This document shows, piece by piece, positions 2,294 through 46,150 of a stretch of DNA of 64,000 bases. Under the pieces are notes generated by a model. That model was not told where the DNA came from and did not search any database. It saw only the letters and a program-made list of their open reading frames with translations. The stretch spans positions 2,467 through 66,466 of the forward strand of contig JBAYES010000003.1 in assembly GCA_041667545.1 (NCBI GenBank), in the 5' to 3' direction. How positions within the stretch are numbered: position 1 is the first letter of the stretch; every line of letters begins with the position of its first letter. The position numbers were made by a program, and so were the translations under genes. The DNA comes from Candidatus Omnitrophota bacterium. Lineage in GTDB: Bacteria > Omnitrophota > Gorgyraeia > Tantalellales > Tantalellaceae.

Positions 2294-4096
2294 ATGAGTG
2301 CAGAGAAGAAAAGAAAAAAGTTCGTAATTTACACACGCTGTTCAACTGATGATCAGGCAAAAGGTGACTTCACCACGCTTGACGCACAGGCTCACCACTG
2401 CCGGAATATGCTTGAAGCGTTCGGTTATGAAATGGCTGATTTCGGTGATAAAGGTATTATTAACGATGACGGTTATTCAGGCAAAGACCTGAACCGCCCC
2501 GGAATCCAGTCAATCCTTAAAGACATACAATCCAAAAAGTCGTTTGACGGAATCATATTTTTTAGGCTTGATAGGCTCACCAGAAACCCTCGTGACCTTT
2601 ACGGCATGATCGATACCTTCAAGGCTGAAGATATAGCCTTTTTATCCGTCAGAGAGAATCTTGATAGCACAACAGCCATAGGCAGAGTTGTGATCGGCAT
2701 CATCGGCTTATTATCAGCCTTTGAGCGTGAACTTACAGGCGAACGTGTAAAAGCTTCAGCTATCGCAAGAGCAAGACAAGGAAAATGGGTAGCGGGTAAA
2801 CCGCCTTACGGATACATACAAGTCAAAGACGGTGAAAGATTATCAAACGGTAGACAACCACACAAAATTGAACTTGATAAAAACCTTGCTCCTCATTTTA
2901 AGATGATCTTTGAAATGGCGGCTGATAACCATTCGCTCTCAACTATCGGCAACGAACTTATCAAAAGAGAAGTCCCCACAGCAAACGGCAACCTCTGGCG
3001 TAAACAGACTATTGCTAAAATACTAAAGAATCCATTTTATAAAGGAATGATTTCATACTCAGGCGAGATAAATAAAGGCAATCACGAAGCAGTTGTAGAT
3101 GAAGAATTATGGAGTAAAGCAAACAAGATAATATCCGCAAGCCTACCCGGACACAGGTTCTTGAAAACAACTCTGGACTACAGCCATCTGTTAAAGGGCA
3201 TTCTGTTCTGCGGAAAATGTGGGAGTTATTTTGTATCAACACACGCCCGAGGCAAAATGGGCAATAAGTTTTATTATTACGAATGCAGTCGAGCAAGACA
3301 AAAACTCGGATGCGATACTAAGCGCATATCAGCAACATCATTTGACCGGGCGGTTATTGACTTTTTAGGCAGGGCGTCCGAAGACCAGAATATTATTGTA
3401 AAAGCTATCGGGAACGCTATTGAGCATTCATCAACACAACTCGATAAATACGATAAGGAAATCCGCCAGTTAAAAAAGAAACTCGACAAAGCCAAAGACT
3501 CTGCTGATAAACTGCTTAACCTTGCCATAGAAAAGGTTATCACCAAGGGACGGACTTATTCAGAAAAAATGGACACACTTGAAACCGAAATCACCGTTCT
3601 TGAAGATAAACTCGGAAAAGCCAAAGCCCGAAGGAAAGCCGCTGAGATGACCGCTAACTCGAACGAATACCTGCACGCAAACCTACAGCTTGCCATGAGA
3701 TACCTCGATCAAGCCCCTCCAGACGCCCAAATCGCCCTTTTAAAGGCACTTATCAAGATACTCAAGGTTTATGACGATCATGTGAAGATGGAAATGTTTA
3801 TAAACGAACCGAACGATGAACTTGTGCAGAACTTACCACTGAAAGAGCCCCAAAAACAACGAACCCCGCTCCTTCTTGAGGAACAGGGTTCGACTGAGCG
3901 TCAACAATGGCGGCTCAGCGGGAACTATAGACGAAAGTCACAACTCCAAGAAATACAACTACTTGTGAAACTTTACAAAAAGCGAAGTATGGGTGCTCTC
4001 ATCTCATTAGGTAAACCAATCGATACTTCCCGCCGTTACGATAAAGGTATTCTATCACGAAACCGCGTAAAAGCCACCGAAACCGTAGTTTTATAA
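2294..4096 (+). CDS. large serine recombinase (resolvase/invertase N-terminal catalytic domain plus recombinase and zinc-ribbon/coiled-coil C-terminal part)
   Basis: Shows the N-terminal serine recombinase signature (VIYTRCSTDDQ...RLDRLTRNPRD). Length is 600 aa. Cys-rich CGKCGSYF...YYYECS region and a long coiled-coil are present. Strong RBS GGAGG. About 70% identical by eye to the second copy at 44423-46090. Confidence 0.85.
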   Translation: MSAEKKRKKFVIYTRCSTDDQAKGDFTTLDAQAHHCRNMLEAFGYEMADFGDKGIINDDGYSGKDLNRPGIQSILKDIQSKKSFDGIIFFRLDRLTRNPRDLYGMIDTFKAEDIAFLSVRENLDSTTAIGRVVIGIIGLLSAFERELTGERVKASAIARARQGKWVAGKPPYGYIQVKDGERLSNGRQPHKIELDKNLAPHFKMIFEMAADNHSLSTIGNELIKREVPTANGNLWRKQTIAKILKNPFYKGMISYSGEINKGNHEAVVDEELWSKANKIISASLPGHRFLKTTLDYSHLLKGILFCGKCGSYFVSTHARGKMGNKFYYYECSRARQKLGCDTKRISATSFDRAVIDFLGRASEDQNIIVKAIGNAIEHSSTQLDKYDKEIRQLKKKLDKAKDSADKLLNLAIEKVITKGRTYSEKMDTLETEITVLEDKLGKAKARRKAAEMTANSNEYLHANLQLAMRYLDQAPPDAQIALLKALIKILKVYDDHVKMEMFINEPNDELVQNLPLKEPQKQRTPLLLEEQGSTERQQWRLSGNYRRKSQLQEIQLLVKLYKKRSMGALISLGKPIDTSRRYDKGILSRNRVKATETVVL

Positions 4097-4179: not shown

Positions 4180-5211
4180 CTACCAAAAGTTCTCTAACTC
4201 TTGTTTGGCACAAAATGCTTTATCAGCTTCGTCTTTGCTCGAATATGAGCCAAGTTTAAAATGAATAAAATGCTTCGATTTCTCATGAAGCTCAATTCCA
4301 ACAATTGACCACTTACGATCAGCTCTTTCGCACATTACTAAAATTGATGATTTATCCTTAAGGATTATAGACTCCAAGACTGTGAGCTTGGGACAAATAT
4401 CTTCATTATCACTATGCGCAAATATTGATCCAACCCTAATATTCTGAAAGTATTCCCCAAGAGGATCATTTCCAAAATCTTGAGGGCAACATGGAAAATA
4501 GGCGCCCGCTCGCCACATATATTGTGCACACCATGGTGTTAAGGCAAGATCTAAACCCGGTTCTCCAGCAAGACCAACTTCCCACTTTTGCAGAGGCTTA
4601 TAAACTCCCTTCCCAAAAGTGCTATTGCAATTGCTGTCACCAGTTAATCTTGCGGGCTTATTATCAGAATTTGCCCAAACAGACATTCGCATCTTACAGT
4701 TTTGTGCCTCCTCAGGCGTTACCGTTCGCATCCATGTAAAGTTCGGATCTCCTTGAAGATCATTTAGCATCGAAGGATTTTCAAGAAAAGCCTCAATACT
4801 ACCGCATAAATATTCAATCTTTTTCCGGGTCACTGGATTTTTAAGGGCATTCTCTAATCGAGTCAACCATCTCAGATTTTCAGGTCGATTATTCCTACAG
4901 TTTGTATCAATATGATCTACCACATGATTGGGGTCAGGCGACTCTCCGTGAAAAGCAGTGGCCACAATTCTATGAATGCGAACATTCGAAATATGCAAAT
5001 ATGGATTTGCTGAATTTTCCTTCCCGAACGTCCATTTATTATCGTTGGCGCGCGCACGCTTGCCGTTTACTTGATGCCGCAATACCGCACCGTTGTCCCG
5101 GACGGAATATTTTTCGTTTTTATAGACACAAGTCTTTTCTTCATTGAAATTATTTATATCAGCATTCGTCACGTTATTTCGCTCCTGATAGAAGTCTGCT
5201 TGTGTGTCCAA
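4180..5211 (-). CDS. HNH endonuclease domain protein (phage HNH_3-like N-terminal domain plus unknown C-terminal domain)
   Basis: Motif HISNVRIHRIVATAFHGESPDPNHVVDHIDTNCRNNRPENLRWLTRLEN. Confidence 0.55.
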   Translation of the reverse strand: MDTQADFYQERNNVTNADINNFNEEKTCVYKNEKYSVRDNGAVLRHQVNGKRARANDNKWTFGKENSANPYLHISNVRIHRIVATAFHGESPDPNHVVDHIDTNCRNNRPENLRWLTRLENALKNPVTRKKIEYLCGSIEAFLENPSMLNDLQGDPNFTWMRTVTPEEAQNCKMRMSVWANSDNKPARLTGDSNCNSTFGKGVYKPLQKWEVGLAGEPGLDLALTPWCAQYMWRAGAYFPCCPQDFGNDPLGEYFQNIRVGSIFAHSDNEDICPKLTVLESIILKDKSSILVMCERADRKWSIVGIELHEKSKHFIHFKLGSYSSKDEADKAFCAKQELENFW

Positions 5212-5441
5212 AATTCCACGTTCTAGTCAGTTTTCAGGTTAGTTTTCCGGCTTCTATCCTCTAACTATTCACCATCTTCCCATTTTGTCCGACAACAAGA
5301 CCCTGCAACCCCTGCTTTAGCACGCTTAACCCCAACCCGGATGCCTGTAGACACACAGCCATCATGAATACGCTTGATGTCGTTTGCCCACTTATCCATA
5401 TCCTCCAATTGAATTTCGTATATCCAAAAACTCCAACATGT

Positions 5442-6131
5442 CTACTCCCACCCGATCTCGCATGCAAGATATTCCCTGATAACAATTCGAATAGTTACCC
5501 CGCTACCCGTGAAAGCAAGATATCGATAGCGTTCAGGCTGAACGGTAATCCACAAAACCGAGCCGGGCTCATTCACAATTAAACGTTGCGAAGCACGGCT
5601 ACCCACCTCTGGGAATACCACAGGCCTTGGCACATCCTCAAAAGAATCCCTCTTCTCTGAGTCCATAGCAATAAATGGCGTACAAGTAAACCTAACTGGA
5701 TCACCCAATTGCGGCTCATTCAACTCATAAACCGCGTGTCCGCGCGCCAACTTCAATAGTACATTTTTAACACGAGGCAACTCGGCAGAGAACAATACTC
5801 CGTTATCTACTTCTTTTTGAGCCTGTTTGAATTTTGAAACCAGCGCAGGCTTTCTTTGTAAAATTGAACTGATTCTCTTTCGCTCAATAGCATTATAATC
5901 AATTGTTCCGCAAACAACGCATTCTATAAGACATGCTAAATACTCTTCATCAAGGGAGAAACTCTCATTACACGATTGGCACGCAAAGGCTACCGATAAA
6001 TTCGCAGGATAAGGTTTATCCAAAAAAACTTTGGAAGGAACGTGATCTCGCGTTTCTGTTCCTTTCCCGCAATGACAACAAAACCCGGACTGTCTTCTGT
6101 CTCCCAAATTCAACAACTGCTCCATTGGCAC
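5442..6131 (-). CDS. HNH nuclease (Cys-box CxxC...DH...CxxC)
   Basis: Motif CCHCGKGTETRDHVPSKVF...CQSCNESF. Last gene of the GHKL-containing co-directional cluster. Confidence 0.5.
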   Translation of the reverse strand: MPMEQLLNLGDRRQSGFCCHCGKGTETRDHVPSKVFLDKPYPANLSVAFACQSCNESFSLDEEYLACLIECVVCGTIDYNAIERKRISSILQRKPALVSKFKQAQKEVDNGVLFSAELPRVKNVLLKLARGHAVYELNEPQLGDPVRFTCTPFIAMDSEKRDSFEDVPRPVVFPEVGSRASQRLIVNEPGSVLWITVQPERYRYLAFTGSGVTIRIVIREYLACEIGWE

Positions 6132-6175
6132 AATCCTTCAATAATTGAATTTATCATCAGAACCATGTTTAAATT

Positions 6176-7819
6176 TTATGATAAAAGTGTTTTAATCCGA
6201 CCCTTAATATTCTCATAAACAGTGGTCAATTTTCTTTTGGCTTCATCCGTCAAGCGTGCAGTATGCATCAAAGCATCGCGTATCGGTTTATATTGCTTGG
6301 AATCGTTAGGAAGAGAATTTTGTCCTCCAGTCTTATCAACAAGATTCGCAAGACCCTGCATATCTAAATAACTTATATCGACATCTACGTGACGAATATC
6401 AATATTGATGCCACCTGCCACTTTATTTTGTGACTCTCTTCGCTTCCATTCATTAATATCCCTCTGTGCTTCCGGAGATATCGTAATATTTTTTTCGGTG
6501 ATGAATTTTCTGATTAAATTCTCCGAAATGAAACAATCAGCATAAGATGCAAAGTTAAAGGCCGCATCTCCGGCTAACTCATTTACCCAACCATCGACTT
6601 TCTTTTTATTTGTAGCTTCTTTGGGAAGCACAAAATCTTCCGTTACCGCATTGAATAATTCTTCAGCTTTTCTTTCTTTTGTAGATATTATTGCATTATC
6701 CGGATCCCCATCGTTGCGATGCTTCCTGCGCCAAGTATCCCAATCGTTAAGAATTCTTCCGATAACTTTGTCGCGGAGAAAATCCAAGAATTCTTTGTAT
6801 TTAGGATCATCGGCAACAATGCTTTCACGGCTACTGGTAAATCTATCCATTCCGTCGTCCAAATCATTAAAATGGATCTGCCCATATAAGTAGCTTTCCA
6901 CGACTCTAGCCGTCGGGATATGCTTAAGAATATCTCTTTCCCGCAATCTTCCATTGACAAAAAGATCCACCCCGACCCTTTCGTCCATGGTGATTATCTT
7001 CAAATCGCGAGGTTTTTCTACCGAGGCGATAAATCCCTTTATCCCGGCTTCTAATTTGAACTGACCGATCTCTTTCAGTTCGAAACTTTTGCATAACCTG
7101 TCGATATATGGGTCCCGGAGATCGTTTATTTTCCACAAGAACTGTGTACGTGAAGCCAGATCATCCAAACACTCATGAGTAACTAGTTCGTCTCCAATAT
7201 AAATCTTAAAATTGGGATCAATCAGGGAAAATCGAAAGTACAACGCAACGATCTTTTTAAGAAATGCCAAGCTGTGCTTTATTCCATCTTTTATATTTTC
7301 GAAATGAATAATAGTTCCCTGATCGTTATCCTTTGTGAACTGCGCAAAAGCGTCCAGCTTCACATCTCCTAGCTGGTATTCTTTCGGAGTCAAATCGTCT
7401 GTAATAGCCTTATCCAAACCAGAGTTGTCTATGACTCCTCCTATATAATCACCTCCAGCCTTCTTTGATATGACCGCGATTTTCTCAGCACAGGACAACA
7501 AAGCAAGCTTGCCTATACCCTTTCGCCCTATATAAGGCCTGTTTTTATGGGGCGATGAATGTCCGTCCCTCCTTTTGGAGTATCCTATTTTCAAAAACTT
7601 ATTCTGAAAATCATCAGCCGTCATTCCAATTCCATCGTCCTTAATAAGAAAGCGCCCGTTCTCTTTATCAATATAAATATACACGCTCTCCGCATTGGCA
7701 TCCCAAGCGTTCGATATAGCTTCCCCAAGCACAGTGGCAAAACTTCTGTACAAATTTCTCCCCAAATGATTTAGAACGCTTAGTGAAATCTCAAACGAAA
7801 ATTTGTTGGTTTTCTTCAT
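6176..7819 (-). CDS. GHKL-family ATPase (HATPase_c_3 / MORC-Hsp90-like)
   Basis: N-box EAISNAWDANA, G1 box DDGIGM and G2 box GRKGIGKLA. Confidence 0.65.
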   Translation of the reverse strand: MKKTNKFSFEISLSVLNHLGRNLYRSFATVLGEAISNAWDANAESVYIYIDKENGRFLIKDDGIGMTADDFQNKFLKIGYSKRRDGHSSPHKNRPYIGRKGIGKLALLSCAEKIAVISKKAGGDYIGGVIDNSGLDKAITDDLTPKEYQLGDVKLDAFAQFTKDNDQGTIIHFENIKDGIKHSLAFLKKIVALYFRFSLIDPNFKIYIGDELVTHECLDDLASRTQFLWKINDLRDPYIDRLCKSFELKEIGQFKLEAGIKGFIASVEKPRDLKIITMDERVGVDLFVNGRLRERDILKHIPTARVVESYLYGQIHFNDLDDGMDRFTSSRESIVADDPKYKEFLDFLRDKVIGRILNDWDTWRRKHRNDGDPDNAIISTKERKAEELFNAVTEDFVLPKEATNKKKVDGWVNELAGDAAFNFASYADCFISENLIRKFITEKNITISPEAQRDINEWKRRESQNKVAGGINIDIRHVDVDISYLDMQGLANLVDKTGGQNSLPNDSKQYKPIRDALMHTARLTDEAKRKLTTVYENIKGRIKTLLS

Positions 7820-7859
7820 GCTTACACCTTATTTTTTTGCGCAACTAACACAGTCGGAA

Positions 7860-9746
7860 TTATCCTGTAATCGTCACGTAGGTTTTTATCATACTGATAT
7901 TTTCCTTACGAGTTTTCTTCTCGTACCCAATCTTATCGCAAATATTCTCAATCTTTATTGCAAATTTATCGCAGTCGACCTTGGTCATCGACAAACCCTT
8001 GCTGGTGCGAACACTCGTATGCCATTCAGCATCCACATCAAGTGGTTTCTGAGGCCTGTGACCATGAATATTAAAAACTCTATGGTCTGTTCGCGTGATC
8101 CAACCAGCGCCAACTTCCGTCACCGCACCCCAAGAACCAGCCATGTCCTTACTGGTGACATAAATAACATAGATTTTTTCGGTTGAATAACTTTCGACGA
8201 AAAACTCCCTTAAATAATCCCAGACTGCTATGCCGTCTGGTATCCGGCTTATCTCATCGTCGCAATTCGTATAGATGATATCTTCGGAAGGAACCCGATT
8301 GAATAATAATAGGTTGTATATAATATCTGCCAAATCTTTATCCTCTTTGGTGTGGCATATAAGAATCCTTCTTTTCTGTGCATCAAGTTTTCTCTTTATG
8401 CCCACAATCGGGAGCAACTCATTCATTTCATCTTTGATAATTTTTTCTACTTTTTCCGGACTAATTTTCTCTGTTCGCCTCAATTCCTTTGTGATTTTCC
8501 TCGTTGCAATATTCGAAGTCTCCTTTTTATATCTTTCGACTAATACTCTCAGTTTCTTTTCCTTCTCGAGCTGTTCTCTCATTTTTTCTTTTTTCTTTTC
8601 ATCATCTTTATAGTTCGCATAAGCTGCTCTAATCGCAACAATATCAGGCAATAATTTCTTTGCGACGAACGAAATCACTTCTTGATATCTCGGGTCATCG
8701 GTTTTATACCCCTGCCGATTACTCAACGACATATCGGGCAATTCGGTTTCTTCAAATAAATCGATATGAAGTTGTCCAACCACATATACTTCCTGTAGCT
8801 TGTTCTTTCCTACGATCGGAAGTATGTTATATTCACCCAGCTTACTATTGGATAAGAGCGAAATAAAATTATCCGGAAAATCGTCCGTCTCCGCTTTTCT
8901 CCCTCTTGTAGTTTTATAAACTCCAATCCATCCTTTGATAATCAAATCATATTCTTTCTCTTCCCCAGTTTTATTTCTGAGCTTCATAAGCCTCTTTTCT
9001 TCATTACGAAACTGCAATAGTTCTTTTCCTTTCTTAAGATAATCGTTTTCGAAATATTTGCTCAAATAGTTAAAACCGGAGCCAATGATAATCAAACCTC
9101 CAAGCTCCTTGATCATCTCTCGATCAAAGCTATCAATGATCATTTCATTGTTGTCCTGAATAATATGTACTCGAAAACTTTTGTCGATGAGAGGAAAGAT
9201 CTTCAACAGGTTTCTCTTGATCGCATCAAAGGACTTGTTCAATCTATAGCTTGGGTCTTTCATTATTATTGAGGTGCCGTGCTTTCCAATTTTTTCGAAT
9301 TTTATGTCCTTTTCGCTCAAAGCCTCCAAAAGTCTATTAGCCGCGATATGTCTCGTAAGAATAAATCCCGACTTTTCCCCGGCCTTGACCGACATAACCC
9401 ATACGTTTTCGGAAATAGAAATAGCCGCTAGTTTTCCGATACCTTTCCTCCCAATTTTCCTGCGCCCGCTCCCCGTGTAGGCATCTTTTTGTGTCGTTCG
9501 AGTCTCTTCTGCTACATGCAAATATTTATTCGTATCTTCCGGATACCTCATTCCAACTCCATCATCTTCAACAATTATGGAATCGGATTTCGCTATTATA
9601 TATACATTTTTTGCATCAGCATCGTAGGCGTTTGCGATCAACTCAGCCAGAATGTAATAAACATTCGTATAGAGATGGGGCCCCAAAAAATCCAACAATT
9701 TTGGATCGAGTTCAAGCCTGTATTCGCGCTTTGATTGATCAACCAT
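7860..9746 (-). CDS. GHKL-family ATPase with a Lys/Glu-rich coiled-coil and a C-terminal TIR-like (DUF1863-like) domain
   Basis: N-terminal boxes ELIANAYDADA, DDGVGM and GRKGIGKLA. C-terminal segment ILICHTKEDKDLADIIYNLL...IYVIYVTSKDMAGSWGAVTEVGAGW resembles the TIR beta-A / alpha-E pattern. The start overlaps the stop of the upstream m5C methyltransferase by 8 nt. Confidence 0.55.
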   Translation of the reverse strand: MVDQSKREYRLELDPKLLDFLGPHLYTNVYYILAELIANAYDADAKNVYIIAKSDSIIVEDDGVGMRYPEDTNKYLHVAEETRTTQKDAYTGSGRRKIGRKGIGKLAAISISENVWVMSVKAGEKSGFILTRHIAANRLLEALSEKDIKFEKIGKHGTSIIMKDPSYRLNKSFDAIKRNLLKIFPLIDKSFRVHIIQDNNEMIIDSFDREMIKELGGLIIIGSGFNYLSKYFENDYLKKGKELLQFRNEEKRLMKLRNKTGEEKEYDLIIKGWIGVYKTTRGRKAETDDFPDNFISLLSNSKLGEYNILPIVGKNKLQEVYVVGQLHIDLFEETELPDMSLSNRQGYKTDDPRYQEVISFVAKKLLPDIVAIRAAYANYKDDEKKKEKMREQLEKEKKLRVLVERYKKETSNIATRKITKELRRTEKISPEKVEKIIKDEMNELLPIVGIKRKLDAQKRRILICHTKEDKDLADIIYNLLLFNRVPSEDIIYTNCDDEISRIPDGIAVWDYLREFFVESYSTEKIYVIYVTSKDMAGSWGAVTEVGAGWITRTDHRVFNIHGHRPQKPLDVDAEWHTSVRTSKGLSMTKVDCDKFAIKIENICDKIGYEKKTRKENISMIKTYVTITG

Positions 9747-10809
9747 GGTATTCCTTCATATGGCGGATGATGCTTCTTCCGATTATTTCTCCGAGCCTGA
9801 CAGGGACTGCATTGCCTATGTAAACTCCTATTTTTCTGAATGAAAATGGCGTTTTTCTATCCCAAAATTTATACTTGCGTGGGAAAGTCTGCAACATGGC
9901 TCCTTCTCGTAGGGATAACGCCCTATCTTGCTCGGGGTGGCCGAAGCGCCCTGTTCCGAAACTATAAAATTGAGTGGTTATCGTTGGGGAAGGACAATCC
10001 CATCTCATCCTTGAATAAACCGAACTGTAAGTCTCCCCCGACTCCTTTTGATGACACTGGGCCCGCAACCCTTCTTCCCAGTCCTTCCAACTCCCTCCCG
10101 GCTTAGACTTTCGTATTCTTTTAAGATTGATTTGTGTAAGCGTTGCGGAACGATGAAGAAAATCGTTTCTCGAAATCGTACCGGCGTCAATCAATTCGAG
10201 TTTACCAATGGTATCGGCAACCGTTTTATAGTTCTCGCGTTTACGCGTTGCTGGCAACAACTCTATTTTGCCCAGCTTTGATGCCAACAATACTAAACGA
10301 GTCCTGTTTTGCGGAATTCCATAGTCAGGACAAAAAACCGATTTCCATGACACGAAATACCCCTCATCTTTGATACCGCAGACAAAATCCTCGAAAACTT
10401 TGTACTTAGCCAGCTGTGGAACATTTTCCATAGAAATAATCGTTGGCTTTAGCTCTTTGACTAACTTCAGAAAATGATACAAAAGACCCCACTTTTCATC
10501 TTGGTCTCTTTCTTTATTTTTTTGTGTGTGCTTTGAAAAGGGTTGGCAAGGCGCACATCCGACCAAAATCTTCAGATTTGCCGATCCGTATAAGGCGTTA
10601 AGCTCCGTTGCTGTAAAATCTTTAATATTTTTAGCAATAAATTTTGCATCATTATTTTTCTCATATGCAAACTTGCAAGACTCATCCAGATCCACACCCG
10701 CCGAGACTGCAATCCCAGATTTAATCAATCCATGGGTCAACCCACCGACGCCGCAAAACAAATCAACGGCAACCGCCGATGTTGCTTTTTTATTATATTG
10801 ATTTCGCAT
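9739..10809 (-). CDS. dcm: DNA (cytosine-5)-methyltransferase
   Basis: Motifs DLFCGVGG (I), GCAPCQPFS (IV), ENV (VI), QNRTRLVL (VIII) and GNAVPV (X). Confidence 0.85.
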   Translation of the reverse strand: MRNQYNKKATSAVAVDLFCGVGGLTHGLIKSGIAVSAGVDLDESCKFAYEKNNDAKFIAKNIKDFTATELNALYGSANLKILVGCAPCQPFSKHTQKNKERDQDEKWGLLYHFLKLVKELKPTIISMENVPQLAKYKVFEDFVCGIKDEGYFVSWKSVFCPDYGIPQNRTRLVLLASKLGKIELLPATRKRENYKTVADTIGKLELIDAGTISRNDFLHRSATLTQINLKRIRKSKPGGSWKDWEEGLRAQCHQKESGETYSSVYSRMRWDCPSPTITTQFYSFGTGRFGHPEQDRALSLREGAMLQTFPRKYKFWDRKTPFSFRKIGVYIGNAVPVRLGEIIGRSIIRHMKEYHG

Positions 10810-10902
10810 TCCCCATCCTCTCCCAATTCAAGTCTTTCAGATCATGAAGCTGAAAAACACGTCCATAAAAATGAACCTCTGCAATTTTGCATCCCTATAT
10901 TT

Positions 10903-11454
10903 TCAAGAAACAGATCTGATTTTTTCCCGGACTCGCTCTGCAATAACATCAGCCTCTTTGAATAAATCCATGACTTTATTCTTTATTGAATCTAATCCCC
11001 CTATCTCGTCAGGGCAAACCTTTTTTATTTTTCCGTAGTCAACTTGAGCAGGAAGATATTTCTCAAAATACCGTTTAATGGCTTGAATTTTCAAAACAGC
11101 GTCAACGCCGTTTTTCTTTCTTAAAAAAACTTCCCAATCCCGGTTTCCTTTTTCAGAATTGCATTTTTTACAGCTTGGCAAAAGATTGCCGATTACATGG
11201 CCGTATCCGGAAAATTTGAGATCCTTTACTAGACCAAAAACGTGATCCCAAGTCTCCGCCTCTGTCCCACAATATACACATAACAAATCCTTCTCTGGAT
11301 CTTGACCGAGCAAGGCAACAGCTTCTTTGACTGTTTTAAGATCATACGAATCATTCGGAGCGATAGCGGAAGCGAAGGCATGATTTATCGTAGTCTGCCT
11401 TTTTTTCATTATTGAATACGGCTGTAAATGTGTCTTAATGCTCTCTATTTTCAT
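10903..11454 (-). CDS. HNH endonuclease
   Basis: Motif CVYCGTEAETWDHVFGLV...GNLLPSCKKCNSEKGNRDW. The start overlaps the Vsr stop. Confidence 0.55.
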   Translation of the reverse strand: MKIESIKTHLQPYSIMKKRQTTINHAFASAIAPNDSYDLKTVKEAVALLGQDPEKDLLCVYCGTEAETWDHVFGLVKDLKFSGYGHVIGNLLPSCKKCNSEKGNRDWEVFLRKKNGVDAVLKIQAIKRYFEKYLPAQVDYGKIKKVCPDEIGGLDSIKNKVMDLFKEADVIAERVREKIRSVS

Positions 11455-17979: not shown

Positions 17980-20900
17980 CTAATCCCAAGCAAGACTTAC
18001 TCCATGCAGTTTTACATCTTTGTTATTATGCGTTGTCAGCTTATATCTCACGTTATTATCCGCGCCCTGCCCGGACACATCAGCAACCGCATGCAAGATC
18101 CTTTTCCCTGTGCCGTAATCCCCTTCGTCTGAAAGATCCATATCTTCCCAAGTCGCTCCGTCATCACGCGAAACATATGCTTTTAAATCCGTATTAAGCG
18201 CGATACTCTCAACATCTTCTTCCTGCATAACTATACGCACGGTGTCCGGATTTTCTTCGGCTGGGAATTGAGCGCTTTTAAGTTCCATATTTTCAGGTGT
18301 GCCTTCATCGTATTCCGATGTAAGCGGAGTGAATGAAGCTGTATGCCTCGCTATGCCTTTAGAGATCCTGAGTTCATCCATACAACCCTTTAACCCGTAT
18401 CTTCTAGCGGAATAGGTTTCGTTACCGATCGTGACATTTGACGATGCCTGTATGTCGATCGCGCAGGTACCTGAATACACCAATGACCCGTTAATAAATA
18501 TGTGGAGCTGATTCGTTCCTGTCCCTGCCCGGCATACCTCTATGTGATACCATTCTCCGAAGATCAAAGGTAAAGTTGTCGTGTAATTCGTATCAACGAT
18601 ATACACCTGTATATAGTTTGTCGAAGTTTTACGAATCGTCCACGATACTCCGCCGCTATCGTAATTACTGACTAAAAAGTGTTCCGTCGCAGTTTCCAAT
18701 GGCTTATACCAGCAATCTATCGAGAAGTTGCCCGTCCCGAACTGGAAATCCGACCCGCCGGGTATTGTCAGATAATCGCTATTAGAAAACCCCTTATACA
18801 CCCCATCCCCAAAGACCGATACCCAGTCAAGCTTGGATGTACCTACACAAACAACACTGTACCCATTGGCACTCTCATCTATTATGATGCGATTTCGATA
18901 ATCTTCTGTAAATCGACAAACAACATCAGCATTGCGGGTTACCGTATGTCCGGTATTTCCATCATCGCTAAAAATGTTGCCGTTCGTATCATTAGGTGTA
19001 CCTTCAAAATGCATGAGTAGCTTGGTGTTTGAATCAGAAACAAAAGCTGTTGTCGGTGGTATAAAATTTGACGTATATCTCGCTGTGTTTGAGATCCTCA
19101 ATTCTCGCATCCACCCTTTACAGTTAGCTCCGCCACCACCCACTTCTCCAATTTTCACTAATAATGTTCCAGTAATATTTTTACTATTAGTTCCTGTAGC
19201 AGTAGCATTGCTCTGAACTCCGTTTATAAACATACGCAGATTACCGCTACTATCTCTGCATGTAGCAAAGTGATACCACATACCCGGGATCGGAGTAAAA
19301 CCTAACCCTTGATATTCAGTTGTGTTGAGATACGTATGAAACCCCGCAGTTCCGCCTCCATCATATATTGACATCCTGATCCCTGTTCCTGTTCCGCCAG
19401 AACCGATATCAACCATGCATGTGCCTCCTGCCGCCCCATCCCACTTAAAAAAACCCTCGATAGTGAAAGCCCCAGTTCCAAAATCCCAATCCGCATGGTC
19501 TGGTACTGAAAGCCAACAATCACTTGTTCCGTCAAAATATGCACTACTCCCTAAGGGATTATTTAAATCTTCAGGGGCATCGAAATTTAATAGCAGTAAA
19601 GTATTGGCGTCTGTCTCATACGGCAATGTCGGAGCTTCATTCTCTCGCACAGTATTCGAAATTCGAAAATATTTGATCCAGCTGTACGTGTGGCTGTTCG
19701 CGATGTTCTCACCGTACCTTAACGCCCCTATACCCACTTTCCCGGTCGGTGATACAGTAGTCGACGAGGTGCTTGATCCTACCAGTTTTTCGTTCAGGTA
19801 TATGCTGTAATTATTACCGTTTCTTATTATCCTTACGCGGTACCATGTGTTCTGGACTAAATACAATCCTGAAGCCGTGCAAAGTGAATACGTACCTCCC
19901 CACCCTATGCTTGAACTACTGATACTTAACCCTAAATATGACGAATCGCTGGTATAGTGAGTAAACGGATATCCTTGCGGCGTCTCGTGGAATAAGATCT
20001 CAAACTCTATTGTATAATTCGAGTTCCAGCATGTCGGCGTCCAGTCGATCTTTAAATAGTCCGAATCCCCGTCAAAGAAACCGGCTGTTTTGTTTAACCT
20101 GACAGGCATTAACGCGGCGTTATTGCTTGGTGTAACCGTTTGCCCGCTACTTGACACGTCAACAAAACCCGCGTCCGCGGAATAAAACTCAAGCCAAGAT
20201 AAATGCCCTTCGTCCGCTGTCTGTATCGATGAAAAACTGAATCTGTAATACCGATACGAGGTGCTGTTTGAAAATGAAAAGTATTTCCTCTCGCCCTGAC
20301 TCCAAGTGACCGACCGGGAATCAAGCGTGGCCCAGTTCGATCCGTCATTTGATCCTTGAAAAGTCCACGCATTGAATGTTCTGGCATAATAACTGTCGTT
20401 CTCTGATCCAAGACAATACCCTTTCAATACTTTCGTGATCCCGACACCGAAATCATATGTTAAGGTTTGGTTTGGGCCCTGATGAGCCTGATCTCCCCAA
20501 TAAGTCACTGAATTCTTGTCCAGAAGTTTGTCCGTATTGTACGCGCCTGACACGGTAAGTGAAGACGAAAAGTTACCCTGATACAAAATTTCTCCGGCCC
20601 CGTTAAAATGCATTAAGAGTTTCACATAACTATCCAACCCGCCTCCGCTTTTCAGCGGAGATACAACCCCATCATTAAGGGAATAATTGGAGCTTCCGCC
20701 TGAGTCTATTCCTGAACTATCCTCAAACGAATCCACTATGCCGTCGATCATGCCGAATTTTGATAAGCTTTCATTGCTGGCTATCTTGAAAAACGCGATC
20801 ATGATGTTGCCTTCGATACGATCGGCAAGTTTAAGCCTGCTGTTGACATATTTGATCGTGAAATCATCCACCGAATCACTCAAATCCGTTTCTTTGGGTA

Positions 20901-21399
20901 TCATATATAGCGGCCTTACATCCTGATATATGTACCCATCGTCCTCGTTGGCATCCTTGTCCTCAAAATTAACTATTTTTGTCATTGTCGTTCTGCAATA
21001 AACCGTGCATACGGCTATCGCCTCGTCCGGTAAGCCGCTCCATTTCGCTAAAGGCGTTATGTCTTCATCACCCGAAACCCACGCGAGATTCCCGGCACTA
21101 TTCAAGTACAGGATATCAATCCGGGCATATTCTGCCGGAGCAGTTATTCCCGGAGAATCCCCGCCTTCAAAAACGACGGGTTCTCCGTTACGGTGGATCT
21201 GGTTAAAATAATTTTCGACACTGCTGGAAGCCACATTCACTGTCATATCAGCCGTATCCTGCGCTCTTGCCCTTAACGCGGATACGTCTCCCTGAAATAA
21301 AGCGCTCAGCGCATTCCTGATATCGCTTGAAACCGGAGATCCGCCTGATACCGGTTTTGTGCTTTCGTTCCCTACCGCCGGAAATATAGCTTTTGCCAT
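17980..21399 (-). CDS. tail fibre / receptor-binding protein with discoidin (F5/8 type C)-like and concanavalin-A-like (LamG) lectin domains
   Basis: 1139 aa. Segment QTLTYDFGVGITKVLKGYCLGSENDSYYARTFNAWTFQGSNDGSNWATLD is discoidin-like. Repeated LamG-like segments are present. Position is immediately after the J-like gene. Confidence 0.55.
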   Translation of the reverse strand: MAKAIFPAVGNESTKPVSGGSPVSSDIRNALSALFQGDVSALRARAQDTADMTVNVASSSVENYFNQIHRNGEPVVFEGGDSPGITAPAEYARIDILYLNSAGNLAWVSGDEDITPLAKWSGLPDEAIAVCTVYCRTTMTKIVNFEDKDANEDDGYIYQDVRPLYMIPKETDLSDSVDDFTIKYVNSRLKLADRIEGNIMIAFFKIASNESLSKFGMIDGIVDSFEDSSGIDSGGSSNYSLNDGVVSPLKSGGGLDSYVKLLMHFNGAGEILYQGNFSSSLTVSGAYNTDKLLDKNSVTYWGDQAHQGPNQTLTYDFGVGITKVLKGYCLGSENDSYYARTFNAWTFQGSNDGSNWATLDSRSVTWSQGERKYFSFSNSTSYRYYRFSFSSIQTADEGHLSWLEFYSADAGFVDVSSSGQTVTPSNNAALMPVRLNKTAGFFDGDSDYLKIDWTPTCWNSNYTIEFEILFHETPQGYPFTHYTSDSSYLGLSISSSSIGWGGTYSLCTASGLYLVQNTWYRVRIIRNGNNYSIYLNEKLVGSSTSSTTVSPTGKVGIGALRYGENIANSHTYSWIKYFRISNTVRENEAPTLPYETDANTLLLLNFDAPEDLNNPLGSSAYFDGTSDCWLSVPDHADWDFGTGAFTIEGFFKWDGAAGGTCMVDIGSGGTGTGIRMSIYDGGGTAGFHTYLNTTEYQGLGFTPIPGMWYHFATCRDSSGNLRMFINGVQSNATATGTNSKNITGTLLVKIGEVGGGGANCKGWMRELRISNTARYTSNFIPPTTAFVSDSNTKLLMHFEGTPNDTNGNIFSDDGNTGHTVTRNADVVCRFTEDYRNRIIIDESANGYSVVCVGTSKLDWVSVFGDGVYKGFSNSDYLTIPGGSDFQFGTGNFSIDCWYKPLETATEHFLVSNYDSGGVSWTIRKTSTNYIQVYIVDTNYTTTLPLIFGEWYHIEVCRAGTGTNQLHIFINGSLVYSGTCAIDIQASSNVTIGNETYSARRYGLKGCMDELRISKGIARHTASFTPLTSEYDEGTPENMELKSAQFPAEENPDTVRIVMQEEDVESIALNTDLKAYVSRDDGATWEDMDLSDEGDYGTGKRILHAVADVSGQGADNNVRYKLTTHNNKDVKLHGVSLAWD

Positions 21400-21408
21400 A
21401 AAATCACC

Positions 21409-24400
21409 TCAATATCCTTTCGCGTAATAATTGATTTTCCCGGAAGCCTGCGCCATAGCGTTCGCCGGGTCTTTTAACCTCACATCGAATCCTGCCGGTA
21501 AGCTGTCCTGATCGACTTCAACCACATATGCCGATCCTGAACACACTACAAGCAGACCTTTAACCTTTATGAAATTATCGAAACTCACTGTCGTCCAGCC
21601 CTCACCCGATACGTCTATATCCAACCCTTCCTGCGTCCTGTCATCCACGTCGAACGTAACAAACAATCGATATAGCGCAAGCAGGTAACTCTCATTATTG
21701 CTTTTCATGATCAATTTAAATCTGAAATACCTGCCTGAGTACCTGCCTGTAGAGAAACTTTCCCAGTTATCCGGTTCCGGGTCCGTATCGGAATAAGCTA
21801 TATAGATCTGAACAGATCCACCGGTTTCGTTAAATATCCCTGTCTGTATAGCAATATTAGATTCCAGTATCCCGCCAAGATCGGATGCTTTTGAGATGTA
21901 TACGGCCTCGTCACCTTCCACTGGTTCATCCCACGTAACTCCCAATTCGTCCCAAAAAGCGGGATCAGTATCCCATTTCTGTTCGGCTTCAATCTGTATG
22001 CCTGTTCTGTAATATTCCTCAGAATATCCTTTCATCCATACACGTTCGGCCGGGCCCGTTAAAATACCACCGCTCAGATCATAGTCTTCGGATAAAACGA
22101 TATTCTGTTCGGGCACTCCGGTTACGTATAAACTGAAAATCGTCATCTCTTCCGAATAGTTCCCTGAAGTATCAACCGCTTTAATAGCGTAATGTTTCTG
22201 TCCGGAACTGACGGTAAGAAGATCGTATGATGAGCCGGTTATGTTTTCGGCGATGATCGTGCCAAGCGCCCAATCCGCGCCTGAAAAAGGAAGTTGCCTT
22301 AACTCATATCCCCTGAGATCCGGATCCATGACTTCTGTCCATGAAAAATGCAAATAGTCTCCGGCGAAGGAAACCGAGAAACCGCTGACATCACCCGGAG
22401 GCGCGCTTTTACCTTCAAGGACGATGTTGCCCTGCGGGCTGTCTCCGATACTGTTCTGCCCTCCGATATCCGATATCGACACAACCGCTACTTTTACACT
22501 ATCGCCTTCCAACAAATCACCCATTACGGTATGCTTTGTTCCCGTACTCGTTCCCCTCAAAGCCCAAGTCAATCCGCCGTCTTTCGATGTGAATATCCTT
22601 ACTCCCGCGAAATTCTTCAGGTCATACCCGGACACGTCCGGATTGTTCCATGAAACACCGATAGTGCTTTCTACCGTACCGTCACCCAAAACTTTTATTT
22701 CTTCATGTAGCTTTAAATCCGTAACGTTCGGAATATCCCCGGCAAATCCTGAATAGTTATTACTCGGAAGGACTACCGTGGAATCGTCATAAACTGCCTC
22801 ATCGTATTCGACTGCCGCGATCATCACTTCGTTTTTCGAATCTCTTTGCATCGATAACGCGCGGTAAGGTTTTACTACCTTATTGTTTTCACCAAAAGCA
22901 TAGGTATCGTATTCCCGCGGGGCTTCGCTGAACGGAGCTGATACCGAGATTTCTGAATATACTCCTTCACCATTTGAAACTGTCCGTTCCTCGATAACGC
23001 CGGAGGCGAACTGCACCCGGATCTTGTATGTCTTACCCGGTGCAACCGCCACCTCCCTGTCCAGCTTAACTAAAGATATCGTCGAACCGGACGATATCCT
23101 GCCTGAATACCCATATTGCGGCAGATCATGCGAAATACCCAGAATATCCGCGCTCTGAAGAGTTACGGCGTCTATCCCCGCTTTGAATTGGACGGAGCTG
23201 TTTATTATCCGGCTACGGTTCAGTATGTACCTGCCTTCTCTAATGGCATATGAGGTTCTTGTCGTTAAAAGCCTTATTCCCTGCTTACGTAACGGTTCTC
23301 CTTTTGATAAAGATTCTTCATTGATAACCGCGATAGTTTCGTTCTTATACCCTTTATCTTTATCCATATACTGAACTTCGATCACGTTGGGCATATCTTT
23401 GCGGGACTTCCATTCCTGAATAAACGAATTTTCTACTATCGATCCCATGCCGAACATTTGCACCATGCTGTCGGGCTTATCTATCTTGACCTTTATCTTT
23501 CCTTCCGAGAAAAATGCCATGCCCCTGAAAACCCCGCAGATCTGATTAACTAAGTCGAGCGCCCTTGATGTGCCGTCGATAACCGCGTCTATCCTGAACC
23601 GTTTCTCATAGTAAGTTGATCCATCGCTATCCGTGACCTCCAGTTTCTCCTCACAGTATCGCGACATCTCAAGATACAGATCATCATCGATATCTGCGCT
23701 TTCGATATATTCCCCTAACCCGTAGATATTGTTTGTTAATAGATCTTTCATGCAAAATACGGGATTCGCGGAATACATGTTTATATACGTTTCGCCGTCC
23801 CAAGAAAGTTCCGTATCGTCCGCCAATAACCTGTATTTTCCGGATACCTTGTCCCAGTAGTAGTCTTCCCACTCGACAACATCGTCCCCGTTCTTTATTT
23901 CCGGCACGCTGATCTTTTTGCCCTTCACAAGAGCCGTTATTGTGGGCGTGCTTCCCGAGATCTGATCGGTCGCCAGAAACCTCACTCCTAAAAGCGCCGT
24001 ATTCGGGTAAATCAGGTCATCTGTCGTAATTTCATCGATGCGCTGTAAATACATTTCATTGATATGTTTCGCGTTGTCACCGTCTTCGCTTGTTTTGGTT
24101 ACACGGATATCGTATTGCCCGGGAGCTAGTCCTTCTACCCTGTAAACCCGTTTAACGCTGGAACGCGTTTCTTCCGTTATCGACTCCTCCGCGAGTTCCG
24201 TCCATTCGGATGCCGCGTGAAGTTTGTAATCAACTTTGTATTTTGCCGTTTCAGAATAAACTCCGCCGTTATTACCCTGTTCATACAAACCGTATGGGAA
24301 ATTAAGCTGTACTTCTACCGCTTCAACTTCCACATCGGAAGTTGTATAAACGTACGGAGTATCAAAACTCAATTTCGCGCCGATATCAAAACTCTGGTGC

Positions 24401-25068
24401 AGGTCTTCGAACGCCGGGATTATCTCCTGATCATTCAGGCCATAGCGTTTATACACATCAACCCCGTAAAAATTCTCTATCGGATTATCGTTGATCTTTA
24501 TGCTCTCGATGCTGTCTATCTCACCGTTACATAAACCCAATAGAACATTGAGATAGTTCTTCTCTCCGTCGTTCCACACAAATTGATTTATGATATTACC
24601 GCCGCATCTATGCTCACCGTAGATGATCGGTATCGGCACGCTCACATCCGAAAGCGTGCGTATACCGTCCCACGCGTATGTCGGTGAACTGTCTTCGAAA
24701 GTATCTGTTCCGGTACTTCCGAAACTCGGCATTTTGGGTTTATTGGCCGCCTGAAGGGCGTAACTGACTCCCGCGATAGCGATCACGCCTATAAGCGCGG
24801 CATTACTCGCGAGGAATGAGAAGATAGCGACAACCGCGGCCCCTATTGCCGCTTTGATTTCATGTACTATAAGTATTTCGTCGCCGTCAGAAACCTGAAC
24901 GGTGTAATTATTTAACTTTTTTCCGTTATGGATTACCCCGCATCCTTGAGAAGAAAAACCTGAACAGTTCAAACAATCGGATACAGTCATACCGCCGGTA
25001 TAAACTATTTCGTTTGTCTGCCTGTTCTTCTTCTCCAAAACATTCGGGATATATACAACCCTTATCAT
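21409..25068 (-). CDS. fused tail assembly protein I (ubiquitin-like plus TM) / host specificity protein J (central tail fibre)
   Basis: N-terminus is gpI-like (IVYTGGMTVSD...GDEILIVHEIKAAIGAAVVAIF). Remainder is a 1100-aa J-like protein with FN3-type repeats. Position follows the K and L genes. Confidence 0.6.
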   Translation of the reverse strand: MIRVVYIPNVLEKKNRQTNEIVYTGGMTVSDCLNCSGFSSQGCGVIHNGKKLNNYTVQVSDGDEILIVHEIKAAIGAAVVAIFSFLASNAALIGVIAIAGVSYALQAANKPKMPSFGSTGTDTFEDSSPTYAWDGIRTLSDVSVPIPIIYGEHRCGGNIINQFVWNDGEKNYLNVLLGLCNGEIDSIESIKINDNPIENFYGVDVYKRYGLNDQEIIPAFEDLHQSFDIGAKLSFDTPYVYTTSDVEVEAVEVQLNFPYGLYEQGNNGGVYSETAKYKVDYKLHAASEWTELAEESITEETRSSVKRVYRVEGLAPGQYDIRVTKTSEDGDNAKHINEMYLQRIDEITTDDLIYPNTALLGVRFLATDQISGSTPTITALVKGKKISVPEIKNGDDVVEWEDYYWDKVSGKYRLLADDTELSWDGETYINMYSANPVFCMKDLLTNNIYGLGEYIESADIDDDLYLEMSRYCEEKLEVTDSDGSTYYEKRFRIDAVIDGTSRALDLVNQICGVFRGMAFFSEGKIKVKIDKPDSMVQMFGMGSIVENSFIQEWKSRKDMPNVIEVQYMDKDKGYKNETIAVINEESLSKGEPLRKQGIRLLTTRTSYAIREGRYILNRSRIINSSVQFKAGIDAVTLQSADILGISHDLPQYGYSGRISSGSTISLVKLDREVAVAPGKTYKIRVQFASGVIEERTVSNGEGVYSEISVSAPFSEAPREYDTYAFGENNKVVKPYRALSMQRDSKNEVMIAAVEYDEAVYDDSTVVLPSNNYSGFAGDIPNVTDLKLHEEIKVLGDGTVESTIGVSWNNPDVSGYDLKNFAGVRIFTSKDGGLTWALRGTSTGTKHTVMGDLLEGDSVKVAVVSISDIGGQNSIGDSPQGNIVLEGKSAPPGDVSGFSVSFAGDYLHFSWTEVMDPDLRGYELRQLPFSGADWALGTIIAENITGSSYDLLTVSSGQKHYAIKAVDTSGNYSEEMTIFSLYVTGVPEQNIVLSEDYDLSGGILTGPAERVWMKGYSEEYYRTGIQIEAEQKWDTDPAFWDELGVTWDEPVEGDEAVYISKASDLGGILESNIAIQTGIFNETGGSVQIYIAYSDTDPEPDNWESFSTGRYSGRYFRFKLIMKSNNESYLLALYRLFVTFDVDDRTQEGLDIDVSGEGWTTVSFDNFIKVKGLLVVCSGSAYVVEVDQDSLPAGFDVRLKDPANAMAQASGKINYYAKGY

Positions 25069-26439: not shown

Positions 26440-28101
26440 TTACGCGTACTGCCTTAACGCTTTTCTGAAATTGCCGTTAGTCTCCAGCTCTTTCGCTACC
26501 GCGTCAGATAGGGTTCTTCTATTACGCCACACATCCTGAGCGTCCCACGCTTGTATAACCTGATTCACGTTTACCGTAATATTCGTTCCCGAGAAGCCTT
26601 CCCCTCTATTAATAGCCCGCAGATTATCGGATCCGCCGATATTCCTCATGCCCCGCCTTGAAAGTATCCCTTCTCCTGTTTGCGCTATTATTGGAACTTC
26701 ATCCGGAGCTAATCCCTGATGCGCTCTGATAATGCCGCCGTTATGGTACTTTCTGACAACACCGCCTGAATGAAATATTTGTCCGACAGGGATACCGAAT
26801 ATTGATCCGCCCGCTCCAGCCAACGCGCTGAACATTTTTATAAGCAATATTTTCGCTATGATATTCGATATCATCTGGAGCATCGCTCGCGTGAATTCGC
26901 TGAATATATCTTTGACACTTTTCAATTCGCCGGTAAACACCTGAAAGAAAAACTGGCTGAACGCGTTTTGCATATTACGCGCTGATTGTTTAGCGAATTC
27001 TTCCATCGCGTTAAATGAGCTATTTATATTTTTTGCTTGTTTAACAACTTGACCGGCGACATTTTTCAGAACTTCAGATGTCTTCGTTCCGGAATCTCTC
27101 ACTTTGGCAAATACCAGTTCGTACTGTTCCACCGCCTTTTGAGCACTATCCATTGATGCTAACTCGAAAGCCTCTCTATTTATATTCATGCTCTCAGATA
27201 GCCGCTGGATAGCCTCACTGGCTCCTCTATATGTTTCTCCCAAGGTACCGGGCAACTTACTTAAGAGATCATAAAACTTTTGCAATGGAACAAGTAACTT
27301 CTGGAATACGATTATTCCTATTTCCATTAACTTGAAAAACCCGGAATATACCTGTTCCAGAAATCCCTGAAAAAGCCCCAGTACATGCCATAATGCCTGA
27401 CCTACCTGAACGGAAAAGTCAGCCCATCCGGCTTTTAGTTTCTGCATTTTCTCCAAGTTTGTCATTGTTGATGTATCTATCTGCTTGAGTATTTTCTCTC
27501 CTGCCTCAAGCGTCGCGTTTAAAAACGCTTGTTTCCTTTCATGCTCAGTCAGATCCTTAACAGATTTTCCGACACTTGCGGCATACTTTTCGTACGCGTC
27601 ACCAGCGCTCACTATAATCCCCAAATTATCAAGAACAAGTTTTGACTGCCTGCCGACACCGATCGCTATACTCTCAAACATAAACCCGACATCTTTTCCA
27701 AACGCTCTTGCCGATGCTCTTGCGATCTCCATCATTTTCGATAATTTATCCGGATCGATACCCAATATCATCGCCTGTGAAGCTTTTTCCATTATTTGCG
27801 CTGTAGACATCGTTTCCCCTGACATCCGGCGTAAATCCTGTACCATTTTATCCGCGCTTACTCCAAGTGACGTTGCCAGGTTGCTGAACGCCTGCTTTTG
27901 CTGTTCGGCTTTAGCGCCCATTTCCATAAGATCCCATGCTTTACGAAGCGCCATAATGCTTGCCGTAATAGCGGCGGTTATACCAAGCCAGTTCTTTTTC
28001 CATGAATTCGCGAATCTCTGCAGGTTGCCGCGCACGCCTTCAAGACGTTTTGTCGCTTCATCCCGCAAACGCAATATGATCGAGAGTTCTTTATTTGTCA
28101 T
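26440..28101 (-). CDS. tail tape measure protein
   Basis: 553 aa, helical and Ala/Gln-rich. Follows the G/GT chaperone pair. Confidence 0.7.
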   Translation of the reverse strand: MTNKELSIILRLRDEATKRLEGVRGNLQRFANSWKKNWLGITAAITASIMALRKAWDLMEMGAKAEQQKQAFSNLATSLGVSADKMVQDLRRMSGETMSTAQIMEKASQAMILGIDPDKLSKMMEIARASARAFGKDVGFMFESIAIGVGRQSKLVLDNLGIIVSAGDAYEKYAASVGKSVKDLTEHERKQAFLNATLEAGEKILKQIDTSTMTNLEKMQKLKAGWADFSVQVGQALWHVLGLFQGFLEQVYSGFFKLMEIGIIVFQKLLVPLQKFYDLLSKLPGTLGETYRGASEAIQRLSESMNINREAFELASMDSAQKAVEQYELVFAKVRDSGTKTSEVLKNVAGQVVKQAKNINSSFNAMEEFAKQSARNMQNAFSQFFFQVFTGELKSVKDIFSEFTRAMLQMISNIIAKILLIKMFSALAGAGGSIFGIPVGQIFHSGGVVRKYHNGGIIRAHQGLAPDEVPIIAQTGEGILSRRGMRNIGGSDNLRAINRGEGFSGTNITVNVNQVIQAWDAQDVWRNRRTLSDAVAKELETNGNFRKALRQYA

Positions 28102-44298: not shown

Positions 44299-44422
44299 GA
44301 TAGAAAGCAAGCATCTGTGATCCCCGACCTTAAGCACCCTAAGCCCTTGTTATAGCTTGACTTGGGATGCCTTCTATTATAGGGTTGGGTCGCATTGCGA
44401 AAAACGAATTCGAAAGGATGTT

Positions 44423-46150
<1,728 letters not shown>

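Follow-up and report, generated by a model that had tools for sequence, protein, structure and literature searches.

The window analysed here is a stretch of 64,000 nucleotides (nt) of DNA from a Candidatus Omnitrophota bacterium (GenBank assembly GCA_041667545.1, contig JBAYES010000003.1, positions 2,467 to 66,466 of the forward strand). At the accessory end of a lambda-like prophage it carries a four-gene locus that an earlier reading of the letters alone, the original prediction, took for a single unrecognised defence system. The four genes encode a 5-methylcytosine (m5C) DNA methyltransferase, two GHKL ATPases, called A and B below, and a small HNH-like protein, at the following positions of the window:

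9739–10809, minus strand: m5C DNA methyltransferase gene, 356 amino acids (aa)
7860–9746, minus strand: gene for A, a paraMORC4-like GHKL protein, 628 aa
6176–7819, minus strand: gene for B, a GHKL protein, 547 aa
5442–6131, minus strand: gene for a putative Zn-ribbon HNH-like protein, 229 aa from a GTG start

The genes are co-directional and tightly packed on the minus strand, exactly where the original prediction had placed them; the methylase gene overlaps that of A by 8 nt and a 40-nt gap separates A from B, as had been given, whereas the last gap, between B and the 229-aa gene, measures 44 nt rather than 45 nt. Public annotation starts the last gene at Met3, two codons later, for a product of 227 aa, and both this product and B have identical (100%) counterparts in a Candidatus Omnitrophota metagenome-assembled genome. 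A megablast search of positions 5200–11000 against E. coli genomes, phages and plasmids returned zero matches. A scan for promoters and terminators from 4 to 16.5 kb gave the same counts as shuffled sequence, so transcription units are not delimitable from it.

The first gene product is an m5C methyltransferase, as had been proposed, with matches to the Pfam family DNA_methylase (PF00145, E = 4.5e-57) and to TIGR00675 (dcm). Both of the large proteins that follow are, again as proposed, intact GHKL ATPases: the Pfam model HATPase_c_3 matches A with E = 1.5e-18 and B with E = 2.3e-20, and the N-box, G1 and G2 ATP-binding motifs (E35/N39/D42, D61–G65 and G99–K105 in A) are intact, and invariant in the alignments of both families. 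A and B are 27% identical to each other, over their N-terminal ~360 aa only. The NCBIfam equivalog model NF050001 (‘BbrUII/HgiDII family restriction enzyme’; 659 positions, cut-off 550 bits) aligns residues 9–419 of A with its positions 1–396 (215.6 bits) and residues 7–370 of B with its positions 1–367 (296.8 bits), so that both proteins fall below the cut-off, and the REBASE-derived REase_II models of PADLOC match A and B over their N-terminal part. Among Type II enzymes, R.HgiDII carries a GHKL domain at its N-terminus, ahead of a C-terminus that has been left unassigned, and four further REBASE subfamilies with a GHKL N-terminus and different C-termini were catalogued in 2008 (PMC2441816). 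The locus resembles HgiDII/BbrUII restriction–modification (R-M) systems in that an m5C methylase is directly followed by a GHKL-type protein; it differs in having two GHKL genes on one methylase, and the C-terminal ~260 aa of the enzyme family are missing from both proteins, A carrying a TIR domain and B an unrelated helical domain instead. What A and B are shown to retain from the BbrUII/HgiDII enzymes is the ATPase/clamp engine in the N-terminal ~360 aa, with the C-terminal effector exchanged. With ATPases that match the N-terminal 60% of the BbrUII/HgiDII model, the locus does not bear out the idea of an unrecognised system, and REBASE-type models partly capture proteins of this GHKL–effector kind. 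The segments of the two ATPases lie as follows:

8595–9746, minus strand: A residues 1–384, GHKL domain and middle module, common to the BbrUII/HgiDII enzymes
8385–8594, minus strand: A residues 385–454, Lys/Glu-rich linker, called from sequence composition
7863–8384, minus strand: A residues 455–628, SpbK-type TIR domain by homology
8115–8117, minus strand: codon of the putative catalytic Glu of A, E544
6179–6709, minus strand: B residues 371–547, family-specific domain, predicted helical

The middle region of A (residues 190–400) is conserved, with homology to the corresponding part of BbrUII-type proteins, and over A residues 8–365 only there is 32% identity to a BbrUII-type enzyme from a metagenome contig, L013, described below. 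The middle region gives no match to an S5 profile, and Pfam, at E values up to 10, finds nothing either there or in residues 441–628. From its composition, the linker is probably a helical coiled-coil. The domain that follows it is detectable through SpbK models only. The PADLOC model for SpbK matches residues 386–558 (E = 2.4e-16), a phmmer search with A finds the solved SpbK chain (PDB 9phb, E = 7.4e-5), and a profile built from 19 members of the A family matches the same chain with E = 4.3e-14, pairing E544, G546 and W549 of A with E192, G194 and W197 of SpbK. W539, E544, G546, A547 and W549 do not vary within the A family. In the loop that follows strand 1 of the TIR domain, A has H-T-K-E-D, against a family consensus of S-H-T-x-x-D-K-D, in which some members have Gln for His, and SpbK has H-S-S-K-D. 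Because the SpbK matches come with aligned, invariant catalytic residues, the reading of the C-terminus as a TIR domain homologous to the SpbK NADase is correct at the level of sequence, and the TIR-like end with a retained catalytic Glu that had been proposed for the upstream ATPase holds up. SpbK is an NADase whose activity requires self-association of its TIR domain, and its study included mutants at the E192, G194 and W197 positions, among them G194R and W197A (PMC12847820). It acts in Bacillus subtilis, where it is encoded by ICEBs1, in abortive infection against SPbeta. Its TIR domain is homologous to that of A, with the catalytic Glu and the Gly and Trp beside it kept, but is preceded by a small domain for binding of the phage portal protein YonE, with neither ATPase nor methylase; in A the sensor would be a GHKL ATPase gated by a methylase.

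Proteins built like A are numerous and were described before. At least 2659 homologues of near-constant length and 54–88% identity occur in WOR-3, ANME-1 archaea, Actinomycetota, Patescibacteria, Endomicrobium, Treponema socranskii, Kiritimatiellales and Clostridiales, a distribution that has, as judged from the homologues, the pattern of a laterally mobile cassette. In 2008, Iyer, Abhiman and Aravind defined the families paraMORC1–5 in neighbourhoods of Dcm/Vsr R-M systems, identified the extension of paraMORC4 as a TIR domain and proposed for it a nuclease or ligand-binding role (PMC2292703). Like A, paraMORC4 combines a GHKL domain with a C-terminal TIR domain, a Dcm/Vsr neighbourhood and a sporadic, mobile distribution; for the S5-type module of paraMORC4, the conserved middle region of A is a candidate. 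Its published Hx[ST]xD loop was compared with the H-T-K-E-D of A by description rather than through paraMORC4 sequences, and the 2008 account predates the link to an NADase through SpbK. A GHKL–TIR protein beside Dcm and Vsr is paraMORC4, a family set out in the very publication that the original prediction cited, which speaks against an unrecognised system. The outcome that would have refuted the original prediction was reached by half, in that the TIR call stands but the ATPases do belong to a described family.

The same publication suggests a different view of A. As a true DNA-cleaving Type II enzyme, A would use its TIR fold as a nuclease or as a DNA- or nucleotide-binding module, without NAD+ depletion. 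It shares its gene position and N-terminal engine with the experimentally known R.HgiDII and BbrUII enzymes, the REase_II models match it, and a nuclease role was the one suggested for its TIR clade (PMC2292703). We nevertheless regard such an enzyme as unlikely, since in sequence the domain is closely related to the SpbK NADase, with an invariant catalytic Glu and invariant Gly and Trp next to it, and since no bacterial TIR DNase was found in the literature searched. Signalling of the Thoeris or another TIR type was also considered: in the ten proteins encoded between 4.2 and 15.9 kb, neither PADLOC nor Pfam matched a ThsA-like SIR2, SLOG or Macro partner, and Thoeris-like and other named systems were rejected because the partner genes are absent. 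In PADLOC, only generic Type II R-M parts and SpbK match, and to this extent the locus is unnamed, as had been claimed.

The C-terminus of B is of another kind. Residues 371–547 are probably all-helical, the AlphaFold2 model consisting of helices only at a mean predicted local distance difference test score (pLDDT) of 56, too poor for a fold search, and no family in Pfam (E up to 10), PDB or PADLOC matches them. In 34 sequences R514-x4-H519-T520 is invariant (codons of R514 and H519 at 6278–6280 and 6263–6265), so that an Rx4-6H motif is present, and a single member of the B family has one weak match to Csx1/Csm6 (E = 0.006). A HEPN-like RNase is a guess that we could not confirm, the Rx4H motif standing beside a low-confidence model and the lack of a profile match. 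A possible analogue exists in the paraMORC–Ymh(HEPN) fusions proposed as counterparts of the R-M-guarding RNases of the PrrC/RloC type (Anantharaman et al. 2013, PMC3710099), which, like B, join a GHKL domain to a helical Rx4H C-terminus in an R-M neighbourhood; the C-terminus of B has no profile match to Ymh or other HEPN families. An exhaustive profile search of 1.84 billion representatives found the domain in 244 clusters only. In the 150 matches listed, all full-length proteins (~550–590 aa) have it as their C-terminal part, and shorter matches may be fragments; there is thus no sign of it in other architectures, and the domain is not a promiscuous effector module.

Anti-phage activity has been shown for a related GHKL–nuclease fusion. 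The paraMORC3 proteins (GHKL–DUF4263 nuclease) are the type I-D Shedu systems, and VcSduA of Vibrio cholerae is an anti-phage protein that requires both its ATPase and its nuclease residues (PMC12137116). Like A and B, it unites a GHKL ATPase, a clamp-like middle and a C-terminal effector in a single polypeptide; unlike them, its effector is a PD-(D/E)xK nuclease of the DUF4263 family, and it requires no methylase partner. Neither Pfam nor PADLOC matches DUF4263 in A or B, and a phage protein annotated as ParaMORC3 is 27% identical to A over the N-terminal module only.

Several observations on related loci show how A and B are normally deployed. First, among 80 metagenome loci anchored on B, a Dcm gene is present in 79, and where enough sequence is available (65 loci) it immediately precedes B in the same direction in 61; Vsr directly follows B in 42 of 68 loci, and A is found in one of the 80. 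Second, in nine independent contexts of A outside the window, Dcm adjoins A in eight and Vsr in five. The order is Dcm-A-Vsr in WOR-3, Dcm-A between housekeeping genes in Treponema socranskii, and Dcm-A in Listeria monocytogenes FDAARGOS_57 (identities of 55% for Dcm and 47% for A); three viral contigs read Dcm-A-Vsr, A-Vsr-Dcm and A-Dcm. As a rule, then, A and B each have a Dcm–GHKL(–Vsr) cassette to themselves, which does not fit a single four-gene system. The Listeria cassette (positions 4940–7935 of locus L256, or about 1,893,257–1,896,252 of NZ_CP030101.1) consists of two unannotated genes, Dcm and GHKL–TIR, on a record filed as a 2.9-Mb ‘plasmid’ that is evidently the chromosome, and gives the GHKL–TIR family a cultured, tractable host.

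Third, B recurs behind other GHKL genes. An independent metagenome contig (L254) has the same four-gene order as the window, with identities of 92% for a partial Dcm, 87–96% for A, 93–94% for B and 67% for the 229-aa protein, and another locus (L096) reads Dcm-A-Vsr-B. The metagenome contig L013 (2861–8684) carries Dcm, a 659-aa GHKL protein, Vsr, B (90% identity) and a homologue of the 229-aa protein (81%). Its 659-aa protein, which served as a positive control, scores 804.9 bits against NF050001 over positions 1–659. Because this protein is a full-length BbrUII/HgiDII member, the slot behind the methylase is exchangeable, being filled either by a BbrUII-type enzyme with Vsr or by the TIR protein, and B can stack behind another GHKL gene without a methylase of its own. 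In the C-terminus of the L013 enzyme a D...E-L-K pattern (RFDIKYK...IIIELKR), visible by eye, hints at a PD-(D/E)xK nuclease; Pfam finds no such nuclease there.

Fourth, the methylases partnered with A, with B and with true BbrUII-type enzymes are one family, 53–88% identical to the methylase of the window, which is 88% identical to that of L013, the partner of a true BbrUII/HgiDII enzyme. The variable region that serves target recognition (residues 181–295) is about as conserved as the catalytic core in three comparisons (0.90 versus 0.87, 0.74 versus 0.77 and 0.55 versus 0.51, variable region first), which suggests from the alignments that these methylases share the same or a very similar target. 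M.HgiDII methylates GTCGAC (PMC5867850). The literature disagrees on M.BbrUII, given as an N6-adenine methylase in one account (PMC5829577) and as a 5mC methylase homologous to M.HgiDII in another (PMC5867850).

The 229-aa protein is a looser companion. Its family conserves C18-x2-C21, D29, H30, N44, C51-x2-C54 and N55, each invariant or at 90% or more. The structural model (pLDDT 92.4, predicted template modelling score 0.90) has strands at residues 27–30 and 47–50 and a helix at 52–57, all with pLDDT above 90, a beta-beta-alpha arrangement at residues 27–57 that carries the conserved Cys/Asp/His/Asn set; residues 80–229 form an alpha+beta domain with no recognisable relative. Pfam HNH_5 weakly matches 21 of 33 family members (best E = 7.2e-4), whereas the protein of the window matches no HNH model even at E = 10. 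With the model, Foldseek found nothing significant in PDB (best E = 0.14) and two short HNH matches in BFVD (probabilities 0.85 and 0.60, E = 0.18–0.55). We rate the protein as Zn-ribbon HNH-like, on the strength of motif, model and the weak HNH_5 matches of its family; the call of an HNH nuclease is partly backed by these, but not by a profile match of its own or a significant fold match.

In 80 reference genomes anchored on the 229-aa family, 47 have no Dcm, Vsr or GHKL gene nearby; a Dcm cluster occurs near the gene in 27, Vsr in 16–19, a GHKL gene in only 7–10 and a DISARM-like trio of helicase, DUF1998 and PLD genes in 8–9. Conversely, the gene is absent from all 80 loci anchored on B, and a 269-aa gene downstream of B in another locus, L006, proved unrelated to it. 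By these neighbourhood counts, the 229-aa gene belongs to defence islands in its own right, with an enrichment near m5C systems, and is not a component of the GHKL cassettes, as the original prediction had made it; in the lineage of the window it happens to follow B. Two further HNH proteins, of 183 and 343 aa, are encoded on either side of the four-gene locus:

10903–11454: 183-aa HNH protein with weak similarity to PtuB/PDC-M01B, between Vsr and a second Dcm gene
4180–5211: 343-aa protein like homing endonucleases of the HNH_3 family, downstream of the 229-aa gene

These counts bear directly on whether the four genes might nonetheless form an obligate system, with A and B as a hetero-oligomer, the HNH protein as a nuclease arm, TIR as a second effector and one methylase as the gate. 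In GHKL ATPases the N-terminal domains mediate dimerisation, the four genes lie close together in one direction, the order recurs in the independent contig L254 at 67–96% identity, and B and the 229-aa gene occur together in L013 too. Yet 79 of 80 B loci have a Dcm of their own, with A present in only one locus and the 229-aa gene in none; A stands with Dcm alone in Treponema, Listeria and WOR-3; and the 229-aa gene has a GHKL neighbour in so few of the 80 genomes, over half of them (47) offering neither Dcm, Vsr nor GHKL. We judge an obligate four-gene system to be improbable.

More improbable is a decaying or accidental juxtaposition, in which B and the 229-aa gene would be remnants of a cassette that lost its methylase and B would be silent or tolerated. 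A Dcm gene does normally lie directly upstream of B, partial systems pile up in defence islands, and the units of the window are not delimited by promoter or terminator signals. Against this, B is full length with all invariant residues intact, and a B without its own methylase lies behind a GHKL gene in three arrangements (the window and L254, L096, and L013). Because an unprotected, toxic B would be counter-selected, sharing of one methylase is the simpler reading. A repair role, with the GHKL proteins as MutL-like partners of Vsr on the T:G mismatches left by deamination of 5-methylcytosine, has very little chance of being right: GHKL proteins are relatives of MutL and Vsr directly follows B in 42 of 68 loci, but the cassette of the window has no Vsr of its own, TIR and the other swapped effectors have no repair role, and a patchy spread across phyla (54–88% identity), carriage by prophages and viruses and membership of a restriction-enzyme superfamily point to a conflict system.

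We therefore return to the reading in which the locus is a stack of R-M-like paraMORC modules, with exchanged effectors, on one methylase, which we think has slightly better than an even chance of being correct when its mechanism is included. The methylase would mark the DNA of host and prophage at a single short sequence, perhaps the GTCGAC of M.HgiDII. With ATP, the GHKL engine would dimerise and clamp or load on DNA that lacks the mark. Clustering of A on unmarked DNA would then gather its TIR domains and set off hydrolysis of NAD+, as in SpbK filaments, and this would abort the infection; the TIR version thus probably depletes NAD+ on meeting unmethylated DNA. B would respond to this mark too, through an effector of another kind that may be an RNase, so that one methylase would license two independent toxic outputs. 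At a broader level, Dcm with GHKL–TIR may be an R-M system whose restriction arm depletes NAD+ instead of cutting, one methylase family licensing swappable, stackable effectors on a common ATPase sensor, namely a nuclease in BbrUII/HgiDII, a TIR domain in A and a helical effector in B; we hold this wider claim as a tentative one, with odds somewhat short of even.

Several points weigh against the stacked-module reading. In the searched literature we found no experimental work on GHKL–TIR or paraMORC4 proteins, sensing of DNA by A is a step that we infer, and the reading does not explain how A or B would read sequence or methylation. For the effector role of B there is neither a profile nor a confident model. 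In an actinobacterial defence island (L004/L005) Vsr and A occur without an adjacent Dcm. The GTCGAC site is not avoided in the window (8 sites versus 10.6 expected), so the motif assignment of the methylase stays a guess; as a test of its specificity, these counts were uninformative. Finally, because the four-gene order is kept in the closest relative, L254, A, B and the 229-aa protein may be functionally coupled to some degree.

The setting of the locus agrees with the original prediction, which had placed it as a defence-type locus in the cargo of a prophage. The prophage is confirmed by its structural genes, which lie at 18–40 kb:

37974–39818: terminase gpA, prophage structural gene
34685–36295: lambda-type portal, prophage structural gene
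31854–32813: major head, prophage structural gene
26440–28101: tape measure, prophage structural gene
21409–25068: tail J, prophage structural gene
17980–21399: lectin-bearing tail protein, prophage structural gene

Other features of the window were noted in passing. Inside the prophage, at 40406–41710, a ParB N-terminal domain is fused to an N6/N4 DNA methyltransferase, the third methylase of the window. A large serine recombinase gene lies at 2294–4096, and just upstream of it, at 1410–2087, is an array of about ten degenerate direct repeats of 44–60 nt, spaced at ~50 or 71 nt, with the core GTATATAC ... AAAGTGTC; the array could represent iterons or a binding array for a recombinase or regulator. 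At its 3′ end, a second large serine recombinase gene (44357–46090) overlaps with a tRNA-Ser(gct) gene (46058–46150, minus strand). A 48-nt stretch over the 5′ part of this tRNA gene recurs at 56038–56085 with 94% identity, and the two copies are probably an attachment-site (att) pair bounding a low-GC element of ~10 kb beside the prophage. A 2510-aa open reading frame occupies 56426–63958 on the minus strand.

The locus is less novel than had been held: it is a two-effector stack belonging to a kind that computational work had already predicted in 2008, whose TIR form remains a prediction. GHKL (paraMORC) proteins stand beside cytosine methylases in thousands of cases across bacteria, archaea and phages, with Listeria monocytogenes and Treponema socranskii as cultured carriers of the GHKL–TIR kind, and experimental support has so far come for nuclease versions only. 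Annotation pipelines and REBASE-derived models call GHKL–TIR and GHKL–helical proteins Type II restriction enzymes, a label that may be wrong for the TIR and helical-domain families. If the reading of stacked modules is true, the effector of a restriction enzyme would be swappable, or could be doubled, behind a single methylase, and epigenetic self-marking would be joined to abortive infection by NAD+ depletion, two logics that are usually kept apart. The locus still offers a testable entry to that link between methylation and NAD+ depletion.

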